IMG/VR virus record: IMGVR_UViG_3300046665_000434
Location: 64,001 to 128,000 of that record
Length of the DNA stretch: 64,000 bases
Strand: one strand, 5' to 3'
Source of the DNA: a virus
Made by a program: the position numbers and the translations under genes. Numbering within the stretch: position 1 is the stretch's first letter; each line of letters opens with the position of its first letter. A model generated the notes under the pieces. It ran no database searches, was not told the DNA's origin, and worked only from the letters and a program-made list of their open reading frames with translations. This document shows, in pieces, positions 2,893 through 13,493 of this stretch.

Positions 2893-3016
2893 AGTCTTGT
2901 AGCTCACTGGTAGAGCGCGTCCTTTCGGTTCGACTCCGAACATGCCTCGGCTTCGGCCAACGGCGTGATCTGGATACACGGACGAGGTAGCAGGTTCGAT
3001 TCCTGCCTAGACTTCC
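2893..3016 (+). tRNA. interrupted tRNA-Val(TAC)-like gene with 50-nt insert (2925-2974) after U33
   Basis: acceptor AGTCTTG/CTAGACT, canonical D and T arms, anticodon stem CGTCC/GGACG; TT + TACAC rebuilds a 7-nt loop. Confidence 0.75.
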
Positions 3017-3023
3017 TAGCAAT

Positions 3024-3191
3024 AACTCTGTAGCTCAGTTTGGATAGAGCGTCCTCATTTTTCCCCTAGGGGGATTGCAGGTTCAAGTCCTGTCCATTGC
3101 AAGTCCCCTAGGGGAGCCTTGGCTTTGGTGGCGGAATTGGTAGACGCGAACACGAGGAAGGTCACGGGTTCGATTCCCGTCATGAGTTACC
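3024..3191 (+). tRNA. interrupted tRNA-Val(AAC)-like gene with 90-nt insert (3059-3148) that is a permuted Leu-type tRNA
   Basis: acceptor AACTCTG/CA(T)GAGTT, stem TCCTC/GAGGA; AT + AACAC rebuilds the loop. Confidence 0.75.
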
Positions 3192-3570: not shown

Positions 3571-3658
3571 AGTCCTCTAGCTCAGTTGGTTCAGAGCGTC
3601 CCCCTATCTTGCTAACGACATGGGGAAGGTCGTAAGTTCGAATCTTACGAGGACTTCC
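3571..3658 (+). tRNA. interrupted tRNA-Val(GAC)-like gene with 11-nt insert (3606-3616)
   Basis: perfect acceptor AGTCCTC/GAGGACT, stem TCCCC/GGGGA; CT + GACAT rebuilds the loop. Confidence 0.8.
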
Positions 3659-3665
3659 TATTTAT

Positions 3666-3809
3666 AACTCTATAGCTCAATTGGTAGAGCGCCATCATCT
3701 TTAGGTTGCGGGTTCGATTCCCGCATGATCCGCATGGATCATTAGCTCAATTGGCAGAGCAGAAGATCACGCGATGGAGGTTGCAGGTTCGAGACCTGCT
3801 AGAGTTTCC
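3666..3809 (+). tRNA. interrupted tRNA-Val(CAC)-like gene; 69-nt insert (3699-3767) is a complete circularly permuted anticodon-less tRNA
   Basis: outer acceptor AACTCTA/TAGAGTT, stem CCATC/GATGG; inner T arm, acceptor ATGATCC/GGATCAT and D arm; AT + CACGC rebuilds the loop. Confidence 0.85.
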
Positions 3810-3811
3810 TA

Positions 3812-3929
3812 ATGCTAGACCCACCGGGAAGCGGGTAAAACGCCGAGGGGTTGAAATTGGCGTGATGGCCTAGAGGCTCATGTTGGCCCGAATGAGAGTG
3901 AGCGCATTGAAATAATCGGGCCCCCGCAT
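3812..3929 (+). ncRNA. candidate structured RNA
   Basis: non-coding; stems ACGCCGA/TTGGCGT and GGCCCGA/TCGGGCC; possible pseudoknot. Confidence 0.35.
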
Positions 3930-3962
3930 CAACTACTACTACTAGACTAGATGGTGATGCTA

Positions 3963-4493
3963 ATGTTCATGTTGAAAATTATGTCCGGTGAAGACCGGCC
4001 AGATTCTGATGTCTCGAAGTCGTTCAAGGGCGTTATCCTTGGCGATGGGATGTCGTTCGAGTTCTCCCGTAAGGTAACGACTGAAACGGCTCTGCTGACA
4101 TTGACGAGCCCAGATGGCTCTCACGTCACTATGGACCTCGCCGGTAACGCTTACATCGTAAGTAACACCGGTAAGACCGTGGCGTCATTCGCTTACAGTA
4201 ACACCAAGCTCGTTGACGCTGAGGTAGCTAACAGGCCTACGTTCAGCGAGCACGAAGATCGTCGACAGCGAGCAGCTGCGAAGCCGCTCAACTCTGTCTC
4301 AGTGAGTGCTGAAGCGGAAGCACTTACCAGTGCCCGCATCCTCTGGTTGAGATTACACGAACCTAAACGCCTTGACCGGTTGCGTGTATGTCGAAGAGCG
4401 GACGGCAGTCTCGTAGTAAATGATCAGGTCGACACGGTCCGACAATTGGATCAGTGGGGTGTCCCAAACACCTACGGCGAACTACTGAATTAA
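3963..4493 (+). CDS. hypothetical protein; C-terminal domain paralogous to 8371..8685
   Basis: WLRLHEP..RRADGSLVVN vs WLELNDP..RRDDGSLVIN. Confidence 0.7.
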   Translation: MFMLKIMSGEDRPDSDVSKSFKGVILGDGMSFEFSRKVTTETALLTLTSPDGSHVTMDLAGNAYIVSNTGKTVASFAYSNTKLVDAEVANRPTFSEHEDRRQRAAAKPLNSVSVSAEAEALTSARILWLRLHEPKRLDRLRVCRRADGSLVVNDQVDTVRQLDQWGVPNTYGELLN

Positions 4494-5334: not shown

Positions 5335-6042
5335 GGATAGATAGGGAAGTGGCCAAACCCATCGGATTGACTTATTCTATGTATTTAAACATGGGATACG
5401 TCAATGAACTGCATCCACTGTCAGCGAGAATGTGTTAATTGGAATTCTCGGCGTGCACACGAGTGTCGTTGTCCGATGAATCCCAATCGGAAAGTCTTTA
5501 GCCCCAATCTAGGCAACCGACATTCTGAAGCTACTAAGGAGAGATGTAGGGCTGCCGCTCAACAGCAACATCGGCAAGGTTTAAGTGCCGGTTTCCCTAA
5601 CTGGGAAGGTAGAACTCATCGAGAAGAAAGTAAGTTAAGAATATCCCAAGCGCTGATGGGTAACAGGAATGGTAACCATCGAGGGGATCGACAGTCCTAC
5701 TATCGCGGGATCAGAATGGATTCTAGATGGGAGGTTCGTACTGCCGAGTGGTTAGATGACATGGGTTGTTATTGGAGATATTCTCCGAGGGGATTCCAGC
5801 TATCCGACGGGCGACACTACTATCCTGATTTCTTTGTCTATGATGATGAAGGTTGTTTAGATTACCTGATCGAAGTTAAAGGTTATTTTAGAGAAGGTAA
5901 TCGTTTGAAATTCGAAACGTTTAAACGAGAATATCCTGAAATAGAAATACGGTTGTGGGAGAAACCTCAACTTAAAGAATTGGGTATCCTTTAGAGTCCG
6001 GTCTCTATGAGTACGTCGGTTCGAATCCGACTCTGTCCTCCA
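5335..6042 (+). tRNA. type II tRNA (Leu TAG-like) interrupted after U33 by a 623-nt endonuclease-encoding insert (5369-5991)
   Basis: 5' half GGATAGA..GGG-AAGTGGCCAAA-CCC-A-TCGGA-TT; 3' half TAGAG-TCCGG, variable arm, GTCGG-TTCGAAT-CCGAC-TCTGTCC-T-CCA. Confidence 0.8.
5404..5994 (+). mobile_element. putative homing endonuclease (Zn finger + NUMOD3 repeats + PD-(D/E)XK nuclease) inside a tRNA anticodon loop
   Basis: CxxC..HxxxC; HSEATKER and HREESKLRIS NUMOD3-like motifs; SRWE..YYPDF..IEVKG. Confidence 0.8.
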
Positions 6043-6498: not shown

Positions 6499-6627
6499 TC
6501 CATGATAGCTACTCGGAAAGGCGCCGTCAATGGGTTCGACTCCCGTTACCCTTAGGGGTATGTTGCCACCCGTACGGGTGGCTTGGCATAGACGGAGATT
6601 GTAGGTTCGACCCCTGCTCATGGAACC
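6499..6627 (+). ncRNA. tRNA-like RNA with a 62-nt structured anticodon-loop region
   Basis: TCCATGA/TCATGGA-A-CC; CCGTC/GACGG; a second T arm inside the loop. Confidence 0.7.
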
Positions 6628-7345: not shown

Positions 7346-7627
7346 ATGTCCTCAACCGTTCACGAACTTAATGATAACGTGTTCAGAAAGTATCTGATCT
7401 ACGCAGTCGTCGAAGACAGTGATTGTCGGCCACTTCAGCTACAGCTCCACCTGATGATGGAGCACGTCTATACCCGTAAGGGCTTGCATCCTGACGTTCA
7501 GAAAGAGGAGTTCGAGAAGTCTCTCTTTTCGTGGGCGCGTAATAACCGGTTGTTCCCTGCCCGCATTACGCCGACAGTAGAACGGTTCTTGAAAGCTAAT
7601 AAATCTAACGGGAGGATTGCAGCATGA
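7346..7627 (+). CDS. hypothetical protein
   Basis: GAGG SD. Confidence 0.65.
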   Translation: MSSTVHELNDNVFRKYLIYAVVEDSDCRPLQLQLHLMMEHVYTRKGLHPDVQKEEFEKSLFSWARNNRLFPARITPTVERFLKANKSNGRIAA

Positions 7628-8328
7628 CTCAAGAATACGCAAGCACCAAGATCGTCACCGCCTGGCACGCACAAGCGCCTAACTCTGGCGGTAAAGGTGA
7701 AGACGGCTATAGCGTCAAGTACAAGAATGGCTACGTCAGCTGGTCACCGACCGCTGCATTTGAAGAGAGTAGCGTCGCTCTCGGTAACATCAGCCACTTC
7801 CCTCCATTCCTGCAACGCCTGATTGCAGAACACGCCATCTTGAGTGACAAACTCACTAAGCTCCAGGACTTCATCGATTCGTCTGATTTCCAGATACACA
7901 TCGACGATCCTGATGAGCGTGCGCGCTTGAATCTGCAAGAGTCCCTGATGGCCCGGTATGCCGAAGTGCTGGCTGTCCGTATCGCCGTCCACAAAGAGAA
8001 AGTCGTTAATGCACCGCCTGCGACCATCACTCCAGTCATCGTGAGGTACGCCGGTAAAGGCCCGCATGAACTCCAGGAGCAAACCGTCGCTTTGGGCGAC
8101 ATGCCTGAATCGTTTGATCTCGAGAAAGTCAGCGAGGCTGTTGCAGCAAAGGTTGGCGATGTCGTATATCAGGAAGACGTCTATGAACTCGACGGCCAAG
8201 GTAGTCCTGTCGTGAACGTAGGCCATGATGGACAGCAGGTGTTTGTGATCAAGCACCACAAAGGCACGCCCGTTATCCAGGAACCGATGAAGTTTGGCGA
8301 TGAGTTCAACTTCAACAAAAACGACTGA
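7624..8328 (+). CDS. multidomain phage protein (GYxVxYxxGYxSWSP domain + crAss001_48-like helical domain)
   Basis: TKIVTA..GYSVKYKNGYVSWSPTAAFEE; RLIAEH..L..KL..L..FI...Q..LM..Y..VL..RI. Confidence 0.6.
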   Translation: MTQEYASTKIVTAWHAQAPNSGGKGEDGYSVKYKNGYVSWSPTAAFEESSVALGNISHFPPFLQRLIAEHAILSDKLTKLQDFIDSSDFQIHIDDPDERARLNLQESLMARYAEVLAVRIAVHKEKVVNAPPATITPVIVRYAGKGPHELQEQTVALGDMPESFDLEKVSEAVAAKVGDVVYQEDVYELDGQGSPVVNVGHDGQQVFVIKHHKGTPVIQEPMKFGDEFNFNKND

Positions 8329-10413: not shown

Positions 10414-10845
10414 ATGTCCATTAGACCGCCAGTGTTGGCGATTGATCGCCAGAAACATTATCGTGATGCATTTACCGATAAAACGATGCGGCTCTATCTG
10501 CCCGTCAACGATCGGGACGAGGTGGTCGAGCACACTAACGGAGAGTGGTTGAAGTGCTGGACCTGGACCGATGTTGAAGGTGAGGTCCCGGTTGCGCTGT
10601 CATCGACAGCGGTGGGTATTTCCCACGCTCTGTTGTGGGCTCCTCGAGAAGATGCCCGTTTGACGCCAGATGGCGTGGTGATCGTCATGGCGCCATTACC
10701 TCGCAGTGTGGCATTCAATAGCCTCAGTAAGCTCGACCAATGGTCACGGCATCTGGAGCGGTCACCTGAATTTGATATCGAGTATCGAGTCGAGACAAAA
10801 CCGATATTCGTCGTTAATGACCCTGAAGAAAATCCACGTAATTAA
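10414..10845 (+). CDS. hypothetical protein
   Basis: ORF in operon. Confidence 0.65.
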   Translation: MSIRPPVLAIDRQKHYRDAFTDKTMRLYLPVNDRDEVVEHTNGEWLKCWTWTDVEGEVPVALSSTAVGISHALLWAPREDARLTPDGVVIVMAPLPRSVAFNSLSKLDQWSRHLERSPEFDIEYRVETKPIFVVNDPEENPRN

Positions 10846-10861
10846 TAAGGAGGGTATTCCC

Positions 10862-11953
10862 TTGGCTGAGAAGAAACCTTTGCTGCTGTTCTCCGGTGGT
10901 CTGGACTCCACGTACATCGCGTACAAACACTTCATTAAACAAGAACAGTTCGATATTGTCTATATCGATGGTCGCCAATCTCGTCGTAAAATCGAGGTCG
11001 AGGAGGCTGTTCGTGGTGAGATCCTCAATTGGTTACGTAAGCATACTGAGTTCTCCTGCTATCCTCGCCAACACTCCGCGGCGTCTACCGTGGACTGGTC
11101 TAACGCTACCAGCGCCGGGTTTCGTCAGGCTATGGCTTGGTTTGTATGCGCTCTGGAAGTGGTCGATCCACACGTACACTCTTGCGTGGAAATCGGCTAT
11201 GTTGCAGGTGATCAGATCTCATCCAATCTCGATACCCTGATCGCCGCTTGGAACGCGCTCTGGCCGGTAGCTAAAATCAGCGACAGCGTGGTCCCATTGA
11301 AATTTCCTCTTCGTTATACGACGAAGACTGAAATCATGAACCATATGCCGAAGGATCTGTACGAACTCACTTGGGTGTGTGAGCTTCCTAAGGGTGATGT
11401 TCGTACAGGGTATAAACCTTGTGGTGACTGTGTTCCATGCGATACCCGAGGAATGCTCGAGTACTCCAAAGCTCGTCGGAAAATGACTGCTGAAGAGCAA
11501 AGTCAGCTCGATGCATGGATCGGAAAAACTCTCGATCTGCGCCAACTGGCGAAACCTGAAATCGTGGCAGCGACTGCAAAGGACGCATATAGCGTTACGG
11601 ATAGTGTACAGGAGATCGTCGAGATCGCCAAGAAACTTTCCGAACCTGCCGATGAGAAGCCGGTCACTTACCAACTTGACTGGTCGAAGGTAAAGCAGGG
11701 AGGTACTGATGTCGCCAATGCGTTACAACAGCTTACCGATACAGCGCTGGCGATCAATAAACTCCCTCCTTCGGAAATGGCAAAACTGTTTGTGCTCGAT
11801 GATCACGGCGACCCTCTTCCAGTTGCAGACGGCGCGGTAAAATGGGTAGATCCGATGACATCTGTGCTTAAACGGGATCTTGAGGAACGCGGGTATATGG
11901 ATGCGATCCCATCGGGGCCGGTCAATGACTTACGGAAGGAGGCTGACCTGTAA
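10862..11953 (+). CDS. QueC-like PP-loop ATPase with C-terminal extension
   Basis: LLFSGGLDST PP-loop; TWVCELP..PCGDCVPC Zn site; TTG start after AGGAGG. Confidence 0.75.
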   Translation: MAEKKPLLLFSGGLDSTYIAYKHFIKQEQFDIVYIDGRQSRRKIEVEEAVRGEILNWLRKHTEFSCYPRQHSAASTVDWSNATSAGFRQAMAWFVCALEVVDPHVHSCVEIGYVAGDQISSNLDTLIAAWNALWPVAKISDSVVPLKFPLRYTTKTEIMNHMPKDLYELTWVCELPKGDVRTGYKPCGDCVPCDTRGMLEYSKARRKMTAEEQSQLDAWIGKTLDLRQLAKPEIVAATAKDAYSVTDSVQEIVEIAKKLSEPADEKPVTYQLDWSKVKQGGTDVANALQQLTDTALAINKLPPSEMAKLFVLDDHGDPLPVADGAVKWVDPMTSVLKRDLEERGYMDAIPSGPVNDLRKEADL

Positions 11954-12705
11954 TGCTGCAATCTATCGATAGCCTCGCCCTGAAGACCATGTTCAAAGTC
12001 AGGCTCGAGAAATTGGGCCTGTTGTTCGTACATGACTTCATCAGGATTCACAACCCTGGACGTAACACGTACCACAACACCACCCACATGCTCGGTGTCG
12101 CTGAGATGGCTACTCGTCTGTGGGATATCGAAGTAGGTCCAGCTGAGCACGATGAGGCCGGTAACTGTCTCGAAGAGCTCGTGGTGGCTGCGTTATTCCA
12201 CGACTTCGACCACAGTGCTGGTGAACTCCCTGACAAGGAGAACATAGCTGACGCCAAGCTTGGCATCGAACAGATGCTGGATCGGAAAGAGTACGACGGT
12301 CAAGTCGGCCTTTACATGATCATGGACGACGGGTTTATCCCGGCCGTTCATCGATTGATGGATGTTACGGAATACCCGTTCGTACATGAGCCAGTCAGTA
12401 CGTCTGAGAAGATCATCCGCGATGCGGATATCCTCTATACGTTCCAGAGCCGTACAGGGCCGATCGTACATGGCCTGTATCGAGAGCTGATGAAGTCTGG
12501 ACGTCTGACTATCGGCATGACGTTCGGACAGTTCCTGGAAGGTCAGCAAGGCTTCCTGGATGGTGTGCAGATGTTCACCAAGACGGGGGCGGTGTTGAAG
12601 GAAGCGTTGACTGCTAAGGTCATTGCCGAACAAAAGCGTTTCGATTACGAAGTCCTCAATGAACGAGGACAGATCCTCAAAAACCAGTTCAGGAATAAAC
12701 GATGA
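11953..12705 (+). CDS. HD-domain phosphohydrolase
   Basis: YHNTTH..ALFHDFDH..IIRDAD. Confidence 0.8.
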   Translation: MLQSIDSLALKTMFKVRLEKLGLLFVHDFIRIHNPGRNTYHNTTHMLGVAEMATRLWDIEVGPAEHDEAGNCLEELVVAALFHDFDHSAGELPDKENIADAKLGIEQMLDRKEYDGQVGLYMIMDDGFIPAVHRLMDVTEYPFVHEPVSTSEKIIRDADILYTFQSRTGPIVHGLYRELMKSGRLTIGMTFGQFLEGQQGFLDGVQMFTKTGAVLKEALTAKVIAEQKRFDYEVLNERGQILKNQFRNKR

Positions 12706-13493
12706 GTCTACTATCCGATCGGCAGATCAGGGCACGCTGTACACCGCCTGAGTTTTACGCAGTGACTACCCATCAGAAGACTAATCAGCAACTGGTCTTC
12801 CCGTATGGTCGGGATCAACTGATCAAGAATTCGAGAGATCTTGATCAGGCCCGTGGGGATGGTGCGACCATGGTCGATTGTCCCCGGACAATGGGGCCGG
12901 TTACTCATTCCGCCACGGCTGAACTGTTGCGCAAGTCAGGCTGGAAACCAATGATCTCGCCCTTCTCACCAGAGTTGGTCAGGTATCACGGGAAGACCAG
13001 AATCATCAGCTGGGGTCTGAGCTCCTACGGGTACGACATTCGTATCTCTGGGGTTGACCTCAAGCTCTTCAACAACATCGGTGGACAGATCGTTGACCCG
13101 ATGCGGATCCAGACTGGCCGCTACGCAGTGCCGGAAGTGATGCACGATGATGAGTTCGATCTGGACTACTTCATCTTACCGCCTAACAGTCTGGTGCTGG
13201 CTCACACGGTTGAAAGCTTCTGTATCCCACGGGACATCCTCGTGACGTGCATTGGCAAGTCAACCTATGCCAGAGTGGGTGTGCACCAACTGGTGACGCC
13301 GCTGGAGCCTGAATGGGAAGGCGAATTGGTGCTCGAGATTGCATCGACTACCAACTATCACACCCGCGTCTATATCGGCTGCGGTATCGCTCAGCTGATG
13401 TTCAACAAAGCTGATGAAATCTGCGAGGTCAGTTACAAGGACCGTGACGGTAAGTATCAGGGACAGACGGGTACTCAAGATGCGCTCGTTTAA
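12702..13493 (+). CDS. dcd: dCTP deaminase
   Basis: LSSYGYDIR; GKSTYARVG; TPLEPEWEGELVLEI; GKYQGQ. Confidence 0.93.
   Translation: MSLLSDRQIRARCTPPEFYAVTTHQKTNQQLVFPYGRDQLIKNSRDLDQARGDGATMVDCPRTMGPVTHSATAELLRKSGWKPMISPFSPELVRYHGKTRIISWGLSSYGYDIRISGVDLKLFNNIGGQIVDPMRIQTGRYAVPEVMHDDEFDLDYFILPPNSLVLAHTVESFCIPRDILVTCIGKSTYARVGVHQLVTPLEPEWEGELVLEIASTTNYHTRVYIGCGIAQLMFNKADEICEVSYKDRDGKYQGQTGTQDALV

Follow-up and report, generated by a model that had tools for sequence, protein, structure and literature searches.

A selected twin-cloverleaf RNA, with one tRNA-shaped body inside the anticodon loop of another, in at least two lineages of giant phages

The viral record IMGVR_UViG_3300046665_000434 of IMG/VR has been analysed from position 64,001 to position 128,000, and this whole stretch of 64,000 nucleotides (nt) is called the window in what follows. 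Positions 3666-3806 of its plus strand hold a twin-cloverleaf RNA of 141 bases, in which one tRNA-shaped body lies within the anticodon loop of another. The outer body is a full cloverleaf whose anticodon loop is interrupted at the U-turn, between nucleotides 33 and 34, by an insert of 69 nt. This insert reads in permuted order as a stem strand, AGGTT, a T arm, an acceptor strand, a cap, an acceptor strand, TA, a D arm and a stem strand. Read linearly, the gene consists of two tandem tRNA-like units, 4 nt apart, that have swapped their acceptor and anticodon-stem partners. An earlier note on this DNA, made from the letters alone, had described the same segments with full pairing of all stems, a permuted inner body with a capped acceptor stem and no anticodon, and an outer CAC placed in a bulge. 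Each segment was found where that note had put it, 28 segments of 3666-3806 concatenating exactly to the sequence; the inner body and the bulged CAC were confirmed on the sequence, and every stem is paired, with a single G-U among them. The coordinates of the segments and of other features are given in Table 1.

The proposed twin fold has a free energy of -49.2 kcal/mol, compared with -52.0 kcal/mol for the minimum free energy (MFE) structure, which departs from it only at the junction of the two bodies. The fold has a z-score of -3.68, and 0/200 shuffled sequences folded as well. In the window the inner stem extends to ATCTTT (3697-3702) paired with GAAGAT (3762-3767), a stem of 5-6 base pairs (bp), so that the junction is a flush coaxial stack with a 5-nt bulge (0-1 nt on one side, 5-6 nt on the other); this arrangement is specific to the window, and the relatives have an internal loop of 4 x 7-9 nt at this place. 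When introns were allowed, ARAGORN called a tRNA-Val(cac) with a 69-nt intron. Without introns it reported no tRNA at the locus, and the Rfam tRNA search gave nothing above threshold, with only partial RF00005 matches of 27.8 and 22.2 bits, under the cut-off of 29. Measured against a canonical tRNA, the outer body has the four arms, but its 7-nt loop is broken by 69 nt and its end is CCT. A scan for promoters and terminators at the locus gave background level only.

Table 1. Segments of the twin-cloverleaf RNA and other features of the region. Positions refer to the window unless they are preceded by the name of another locus.
Feature	Position	Strand	Remarks
Outer acceptor stem, 5' strand AACTCTA, A1-U72 end	3666..3672	+	Pairs with 3800-3806; covariation at 4/7 pairs
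Outer D arm, GCTC-AATTGGTA-GAGC	3675..3690	+	Invariant in relatives; A15 partners T48 at 3782
Outer anticodon stem, 5' strand CCATC	3692..3696	+	Pairs with 3773-3777; covariation at 3/5 pairs
AT, outer-loop nucleotides 32-33	3697..3698	+	In the window also paired to 3766-3767
69-nt insert, circularly permuted, anticodon-less, YrlA-type tRNA-like module	3699..3767	+	ARAGORN intron; Rfam YrlA match at 3700-3767
Inner 'anticodon' stem, 3' strand TCTTT	3698..3702	+	Pairs with GAAGA at 3762-3766; covariation at 2/5 pairs
Inner variable loop AGGTT and T arm GCGGG-TTCGATT-CCCGC	3703..3724 (T arm 3708-3724)	+	T48 at 3707 covaries with inner A15
Inner 7-bp acceptor ATGATCC / GGATCAT with cap GCAT	3725-3731 / 3736-3742; cap 3732-3735	+	Covariation at 4/7 pairs
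Inner D arm, GCTC-AATTGGCA-GAGC	3745..3760	+	Segment check
Inner 'anticodon' stem, 5' strand GAAGA	3762..3766	+	Segment check, alignment
CACGC, outer-loop nucleotides 34-38 (Val-type C34 A35 C36, then G37 C38)	3768..3772	+	Bulge
Outer anticodon stem, 3' strand GATGG	3773..3777	+	
Outer variable loop AGGTT and T arm GCAGG-TTCGAGA-CCTGC	3778..3799 (T arm 3783-3799)	+	Covariation at 4/5 T-stem pairs
Outer acceptor, 3' strand TAGAGTT (3800-3806), discriminator T, CC-T instead of CCA	3800..3810	+	
Sister gene, family A, Val(UAC)-type	2893..3016	+	50-nt insert: T-arm-like hairpin, capped helix, CUGGA
Sister gene, family B, Val(AAC)-type	3024..3190	+	90-nt insert: hairpin, T arm, capped acceptor-like stem, Leu-type D arm
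Sister gene, family D, Val(GAC)-type	3571..3658	+	11-nt insert
PF21825 protein	7624-8328; L037:754-1473; L020:8368-9093; L068:5964-6803; L076:1383-2288		

Relatives of the twin were searched over IMG/VR with a structural DNA pattern (D-arm end, short gap, T loop, gap, second D arm), which matched at least 120 loci; the capped 7-bp acceptor was perfect in 19 of those listed. Among the matches listed, true twins with an outer Val-type body were found at four loci, L020, L073 (the same as L020 in sequence), L037 and L097. Later scans yielded only L273 and L387, both identical to L020; the latter was the one copy added by pattern scans of metagenomes and bacterial genomes, which found no twin in bacteria. 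The covariance-model search gave no additional Val-type twins: model R1, run over 246 loci, returned mainly ordinary and tandem tRNAs, and the top matches, checked by hand, were tandem pairs except for L076 and L068. An exact DNA pattern of the inner module gave no match, BLAST of the twin and of one family-A gene against GenBank phages gave generic tRNA-arm matches or none, and protein patterns of the open reading frames (ORFs) at 3951-4493 and 7624-8328 revealed no close relatives.

A covariation analysis has been carried out on an alignment of the four distinct versions (window, L020, L037 and L097). Standard pairs fill 99.4% of the pair cells, and both sides have changed at 18/42 base pairs. 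In the controls, 0/500 shuffles were as good, and pairing dropped to only 33-45% when the partners were slid. At the Levitt pair 15:48, the twin of the window has A:U in its outer as well as its inner body, where L020, L037 and L097 have G:C in each; this covariation in both bodies speaks for two real L-shaped folds. Neighbouring proteins shared among the twin phages are only 30-66% identical. The analysis shows that purifying selection acts on the two-cloverleaf fold and on both elbows, as the earlier note had proposed from the intact pairing of both halves; its proposal is supported by the covariation of the long-range helices and of both 15:48 pairs, and the covarying homologues that it had asked for exist.

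That note had also named an assembly chimera as a possible refutation. The L020 version is identical across four independent assemblies, the L097 twin lies in a complete genome of 253,921 bp with terminal repeats, and a 28.8-kb contig of another run covers 3661-3830 with 10 substitutions and no gap. As independent assemblies agree and this contig spans the twin gap-free, a chimera is excluded, and the twin is confirmed as a real, selected RNA that is due neither to chance nor to misassembly.

A more distant twin, with an outer body of Ala (UGC) type, is present in complete 276-kb phages at L076:3461-3608 and L068:4264-4413 (minus strand). For each of them the MFE structure is the twin fold, and their acceptor stems differ from each other through compensating changes. 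The twin is spread over at least two giant-phage lineages.

The twin at 3666 is the CAC member, in the window, of a family of Val-type interrupted tRNA-like genes, of which the window has 4, L037 has 6, L020 has 5 and L097 has 2 (n = 17). Six types of insert (A to F) are present, and each type is kept between phages; every insert type was retained among the orthologues seen, and none of these was an insert-free allele. Directly before the 3' strand of the anticodon stem, 17/17 genes have N-A-C-N-N as their five nucleotides, with A35 and C36 invariant directly 3' of the insert and N34 free. Position 33 is U in 9/17 genes and C in 8/17, and position 37 is a purine in 12/17 and a pyrimidine in 5/17, N-A-C alone being conserved at the junctions across the family. 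All 17 genes end in discriminator-CC (the discriminator being U, C or A) followed by T in 15 and by A in both L097 genes, whereas each of the six ordinary tRNA genes in the window has an encoded CCA. The inserts of types A, B and C, as well as that of a further element at 6499, contain a T arm, a capped acceptor-like helix and a D-loop mimic, which form a second elbow in permuted order; in the twin this theme is fully developed.

The element just mentioned is an insert-bearing tRNA-like gene at 6499-6625 that ends in A-CCT and whose insert consists of a T-arm-like hairpin and two hairpins. Its triplet before the stem is GCA, not NAC, and it overlaps a probably spurious ORF of 91 amino acids. 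The 11-nt inserts of the Val(GAC)-type genes contain palindromes, which are TTAGCTAA in L020:8251-8337, TAGCTA in L037:638-724 and an imperfect TTGCTAA in the window gene at 3571-3658; these could let two RNAs pair loop to loop.

Conservation of this kind bears on whether the twin is a scar without function, left by recombination between tandem tRNA genes or by the repair of double-strand breaks in them, for example after a cut by a nearby homing endonuclease. Arrays of tRNA genes with homing endonucleases are prone to recombination, and the outer and inner bodies are similar to each other in sequence. When the un-permuted inner body and the spliced outer body were compared with 2101 phage tRNAs, no clear isoacceptor affinity was obtained for them, Val included. 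The inner acceptor of L020 may resemble the acceptor of E. coli tRNA-Val. A neutral scar is largely refuted because 18 pairs and the tertiary pairs compensate across phages with 30-66% protein identity; the five other insert types are conserved likewise, and we consider this origin very improbable.

The analysis of the inner module with Rfam, at relaxed thresholds, revealed that the best non-tRNA match of the region is YrlA (RF02553) at 3700-3767, with 41.8 bits. The cmscan alignment spans model positions 23-88, which correspond to the tRNA-like domain. The twins of L097 and L020 scored 40.9 and 37.7 bits, against a gathering threshold of 69, so that the matches fall 28-31 bits short of it. 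YrlA RNAs are laid out as a variable loop, a T arm, an acceptor-like stem-loop and a D arm (Chen 2014, PMC4201824), and the inner module has the same order and shape on its stem, with the tertiary nucleotides of tRNA conserved. The 15:48 pair also covaries in YrlA, and tRNA-modifying enzymes act on it (PMC4201824). The inner 7-bp stem matches the form found in Mycobacterium smegmatis, whose YrlA is cleaved by RNase P in vitro and in vivo is cleaved and receives CCA (PMC4201824). The twin differs in having, where YrlA has its Ro-binding stem, a complete tRNA body whose anticodon strand is of Val type.

This likeness leads to the question of whether the twin is a Y RNA in the strict sense, that is, an RNA of the YrlA family binding the Ro60/Rsr ring of the host or a divergent phage one, with the outer tRNA body replacing the Ro-binding stem or itself providing the binding site. 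The domain order and the sub-threshold matches in three orthologues speak for it, and YrlA RNAs are known in phages, including mycobacteriophages (PMC4201824). Against it, the Rsr-binding motif GNCGAAN0-1G was not found by regular expression in the twins of the window and L037, and its single match in L020 and L097, at position 114, lies in the 3' anticodon stem, the 5' part being without motif. No TROVE domain (PF05731) was found in the record of the window or in 5 related records (3 of them complete), a search in which Pfam could miss a divergent Ro60, and no same-strand Ro60/Rsr gene lies within about 4 kb of the twin. With scores this far below the family cut-off as well, the strict Y-RNA identity appears quite improbable. 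Judged by sequence, the inner body is a YrlA-type module, yet the whole RNA would not be a YrlA.

The inner body was also considered as a real permuted tRNA gene. This candidate was ruled out: in a permuted gene of the Cyanidioschyzon merolae type, joining the ends yields a tRNA with a 7-nt anticodon loop, whereas the joined ends of the insert give a loop of 0-6 nt with no conserved anticodon, so that no anticodon loop can form.

Other loci of the pattern searches have related layouts. The GC-rich viral contigs L029, L040, L041, L121 and L074 have a D arm, a mini hairpin in place of the anticodon arm, a T arm, a capped 7-bp acceptor, a second D arm and non-tRNA sequence, and these may be phage YrlA-like RNAs. 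In bacteria, L411, L414, L419, L422 and L433 (Bradyrhizobium) and other loci among L408-L434 are tRNA-like genes with a loop of 3-4 nt for the anticodon loop, and in several genomes they stand directly upstream of normal tRNA genes.

The reading that is preferred here, tentatively and with somewhat less than an even chance of being right, is that the twin stays unspliced and serves as a bivalent tRNA mimic of valine identity, its ends being matured by the tRNA-end enzymes of the host. The product of the locus would be a non-coding RNA, stable and structured, that mimics two covalently joined tRNAs and has a valine-type scaffold, with a second L-shaped and anticodon-less module, permuted like the YrlA domain, grafted between nucleotides 33 and 34. 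RNase P would cut the outer 5' end and, by analogy with the YrlA of M. smegmatis, probably also 5' of G3736 in the cap. The CC-U 3' end would be trimmed and then completed by the host CCA-adding enzyme, and the insert would stay in the RNA. With the insert at the U-turn, nucleotides 34-38 would continue the stack of the 3' side of the anticodon stem, as judged from tRNA structure, so that the outer half would display A35 and C36, the identity nucleotides of valyl-tRNA synthetase (ValRS), while the inner half would present a second elbow and an acceptor helix to tRNA-binding proteins. Such an RNA may be a decoy, sponge or adaptor rather than a ribosomal decoder; the earlier note had suggested a bivalent decoy for tRNA-binding defence proteins or a substrate for a dimeric processing enzyme as possible roles.

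The unspliced mimic is favoured because all long-range helices and both 15:48 pairs covary across phages with 30-66% identical proteins, and because the inserts of A, B, C and the 6499 element all build a second elbow. It is likewise favoured by the match of the inner module to YrlA in three orthologues, YrlA being a stable tRNA mimic (PMC4201824), by the retention of the insert types in every orthologue seen, by the CCT ends of the Val-type genes as opposed to the CCA ends of the normal tRNAs of the phage, and by the searches of three complete twin-carrying genomes, in which RtcB, Rnl1, Rnl2 and TROVE were not found. Valine identity rather than decoding is suggested since A35-C36 is fixed and N34 free, with U33 in about half of the genes and a purine at 37 in some two thirds.

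Several observations weigh against this reading. An A73 discriminator is universal in tRNA-Val. Since the discriminator of the family is U, C or A and not A73, charging by a bacterial ValRS is uncertain; A35/C36 are present throughout the 17 genes, and aminoacylation itself is only predicted, on sequence grounds. Excision of the inserts from the four genes of the window would produce canonical 7-nt loops with U33 and a purine at 37, one each with UAC, AAC, GAC and CAC, which covers all four NAC anticodons. No uninterrupted tRNA-Val was found in the record of the window or in the complete relative G001, whose tRNAs besides the interrupted genes are Asn, Ser-like, Asp and Tyr only. In addition, endonuclease ORFs are placed at the 33/34 position of a tRNA-Leu in the window and of a tRNA-Tyr in another phage, with the tRNA halves intact.

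These same points support a splicing model, which is possible although doubtful, and in which the locus encodes a genuine pre-tRNA-Val(CAC) and the 69-nt insert represents a novel type of intron that proteins excise. An endonuclease would measure from the tRNA body and cut after U33 and before C34, and a ligase, for example the host RtcB, would join the exons; the tRNA-shaped intron would either help the machinery to grip the precursor or be a by-product that has its own role. The 33/34 position is common to all inserts, whose lengths range from 11 to 621 nt, and similar inserts of Lak phages, for which alleles with and without insert exist, were taken as introns by Devoto 2019 (PMC6784885).

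The longest of these inserts belongs to a type-II tRNA-Leu(UAG) at 5335-6042, which is split after U33 by the ORF 5404-5994, with both halves intact and no ribozyme found. The whole insert has 621 nt, the ORF encodes a NUMOD3 domain and a DUF1064/endonuclease-I-like domain, and its TAG stop codon is the anticodon of the tRNA-Leu. A homologue with 59% identity splits tRNA-Tyr(GUA) at the same site in L004-L006, also without ribozyme, and other homologues are free-standing within tRNA arrays (L007, L009). The split tRNA-Leu and tRNA-Tyr hint at a trans-acting splicing route. The split tRNA-Tyr adjoins a tRNA-Pro(CGG) with a genuine group I intron (L004:194-506), whose detection with Rfam at 93 bits served as control for the group I search.

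Other facts speak against splicing of the twin. The insert, with 69 nt, is too short for a group I intron, whose ribozyme core has about 200 nt or more; no RF00028 match was found in the window, and Rfam gave no ribozyme. Inspection of the sequences revealed no bulge-helix-bulge, a motif of two 3-nt bulges on either side of a 4-bp helix, since the internal 4-bp helix was not found at the junctions of the window or of its relatives. Domains of the RtcB, Rnl1, Rnl2, EndA (PF01974) and polynucleotide kinase (PNK) types were not found in the record of the window, nor in the other phage records searched for them. After excision, the 8/17 genes with C33 and the 5/17 with a pyrimidine at 37 would be poor for decoding; nothing but N-A-C is conserved at the junctions, and, with the permuted order, cuts by RNase P and RNase Z would fall inside the insert instead of at its ends. 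The idea of a discarded intron is disfavoured because such an intron would need no covarying tRNA-like tertiary fold. Joints seen in the run X2 were considered as evidence of splicing and rejected, as they come from unrelated tRNAs in DNA contigs. A broader version, in which an undescribed, ribozyme-free splicing of phage tRNAs at the 33/34 U-turn of Val-type pre-tRNAs releases functional YrlA-like introns, linear or circular, and the twin is the precursor of two functional RNAs, is unlikely in our estimation. To our knowledge, tRNA splicing at the 33/34 position is not known from any domain of life.

The tandem arrangement of the gene is also compatible with a domain-swapped dimer, in which RNase P and 3' processing would open the cap and the active species would be a non-covalent pair of tRNA-length strands. 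One strand would have 66 nt and no loop, the other about 71 nt with the whole Val anticodon loop AUCACGC in normal tRNA order, and two acceptor ends would be free. Besides the exchange of stem partners between the two units, the inner acceptor has 7 bp and its first base is G in 3/4 orthologues, as in the YrlA of M. smegmatis that is cut by RNase P, and two-piece tmRNAs produced from permuted genes are an established precedent. On the other hand, the cap varies in sequence and length (GCAT, GTAT, GCAA and ACCCACCGA), and the dimer refines the maturation of the RNA without giving it a separate function; it is regarded as improbable.

Among the neighbouring genes, a PF21825 (crAss001_48-related) protein of 234-301 amino acids is encoded in or beside the cluster of interrupted tRNAs in every lineage. 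Its AlphaFold2 model has a mean predicted local distance difference test (pLDDT) score of 60, with weak Tudor/CarD-like hints from the fold search; Foldseek against the PDB gave nothing at E <= 0.001, and no link to RNA processing was found. The Pfam analysis of ten neighbouring ORFs revealed NUDIX, dCTP-deaminase-like and weak HD domains, and no RNA-specific domain in these ten. QueC-like, weak HD-domain and dCTP-deaminase-like genes are located downstream of the tRNA cluster, at 10706-13493, and suggest functions in nucleotide or 7-deazaguanine modification. The tRNA-like sequence at 2799-2884 has a GTA triplet and encodes its CCA; it received no ARAGORN call and only a weak Rfam tRNA-Sec match (23.5 bits), and a divergent tRNA-Tyr of type II is a possible identity for it.

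In one clade of phages, with sizes of about 250 kb, selection maintains tRNA-like genes that carry a second elbow at the anticodon turn. If unspliced, the twin would define a new composite class, a tRNA body joined to a Y-RNA-type module without Ro, and would offer a handle on what the tRNA-like domain of Y RNAs binds. If spliced, it would reveal protein-only tRNA splicing in viruses that infect bacteria. Under either reading, the four orthologues together with the covariance model provide the means for a test.

The earlier note knew of no described RNA class with this architecture. This does not hold for the inner body, which corresponds to the tRNA-like domain of YrlA (PMC4201824), but for the whole twin it agrees with the literature searched, in which no covarying twin cloverleaf with a tRNA body replacing the Ro stem was found, nor a Val-type, CCT-ended family with such a twin, nor its spread over at least two giant-phage lineages. 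The nearest description is that of the 'enigmatic' introns in tRNAs of Lak megaphages, one of which 'may itself encode a tRNA' (Devoto 2019, PMC6784885), and which splicing of the twin, if true, would explain. By description, both are short, conserved, tRNA-shaped inserts of the anticodon loop with no ribozyme class. The Lak inserts belong to another phage lineage and host and were compared by description, not by sequence; the insert of the twin is permuted and anticodon-less, its family is confined to Val-type bodies that end in CCT, and the twin covaries as a whole.

Short, ribozyme-free inserts in the anticodon loop are shared with the protein-spliced introns of archaea and eukaryotes, and those of archaea can carry homing endonuclease ORFs, but the insert of the twin is at 33/34 and not at 37/38, has neither bulge-helix-bulge nor EndA, and belongs to a phage with a bacterial host. 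In the permuted tRNA genes of Cyanidioschyzon merolae and the two-piece tmRNA genes of alpha-proteobacteria, the 3' half is located upstream of the 5' half and the linker is removed by tRNA-end enzymes. The insert resembles them in that its T arm and acceptor 3' strand precede the acceptor 5' strand and the D arm, with a short linker between. It differs in that the outer junction has no bulge-helix-bulge, there is no tag reading frame, and the permuted unit is nested in another tRNA, its loop after circularisation having 0-6 nt and no anticodon.

Mimicry of tRNA recurs in the conflict between viruses and hosts, as in anticodon nucleases, tRNA-targeting toxins and viral tRNA-like structures. 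Plant viruses have valine-accepting tRNA-like structures in which A35-C36 and the anticodon stem are kept, large stem-loop insertions are tolerated and the discriminator varies (PMC9976931). In the one of turnip yellow mosaic virus (Giege and Eriani 2023, PMC9976931), the structure is the 3' end of an RNA genome, with a pseudoknotted acceptor and a complete 7-nt loop, whereas charging of the phage RNAs is only predicted; with the phage family it shares the valine identity nucleotides, the anticodon stem, the inserts, the variable discriminator and, if the mimic reading is right, the condition of a viral RNA that does not decode.

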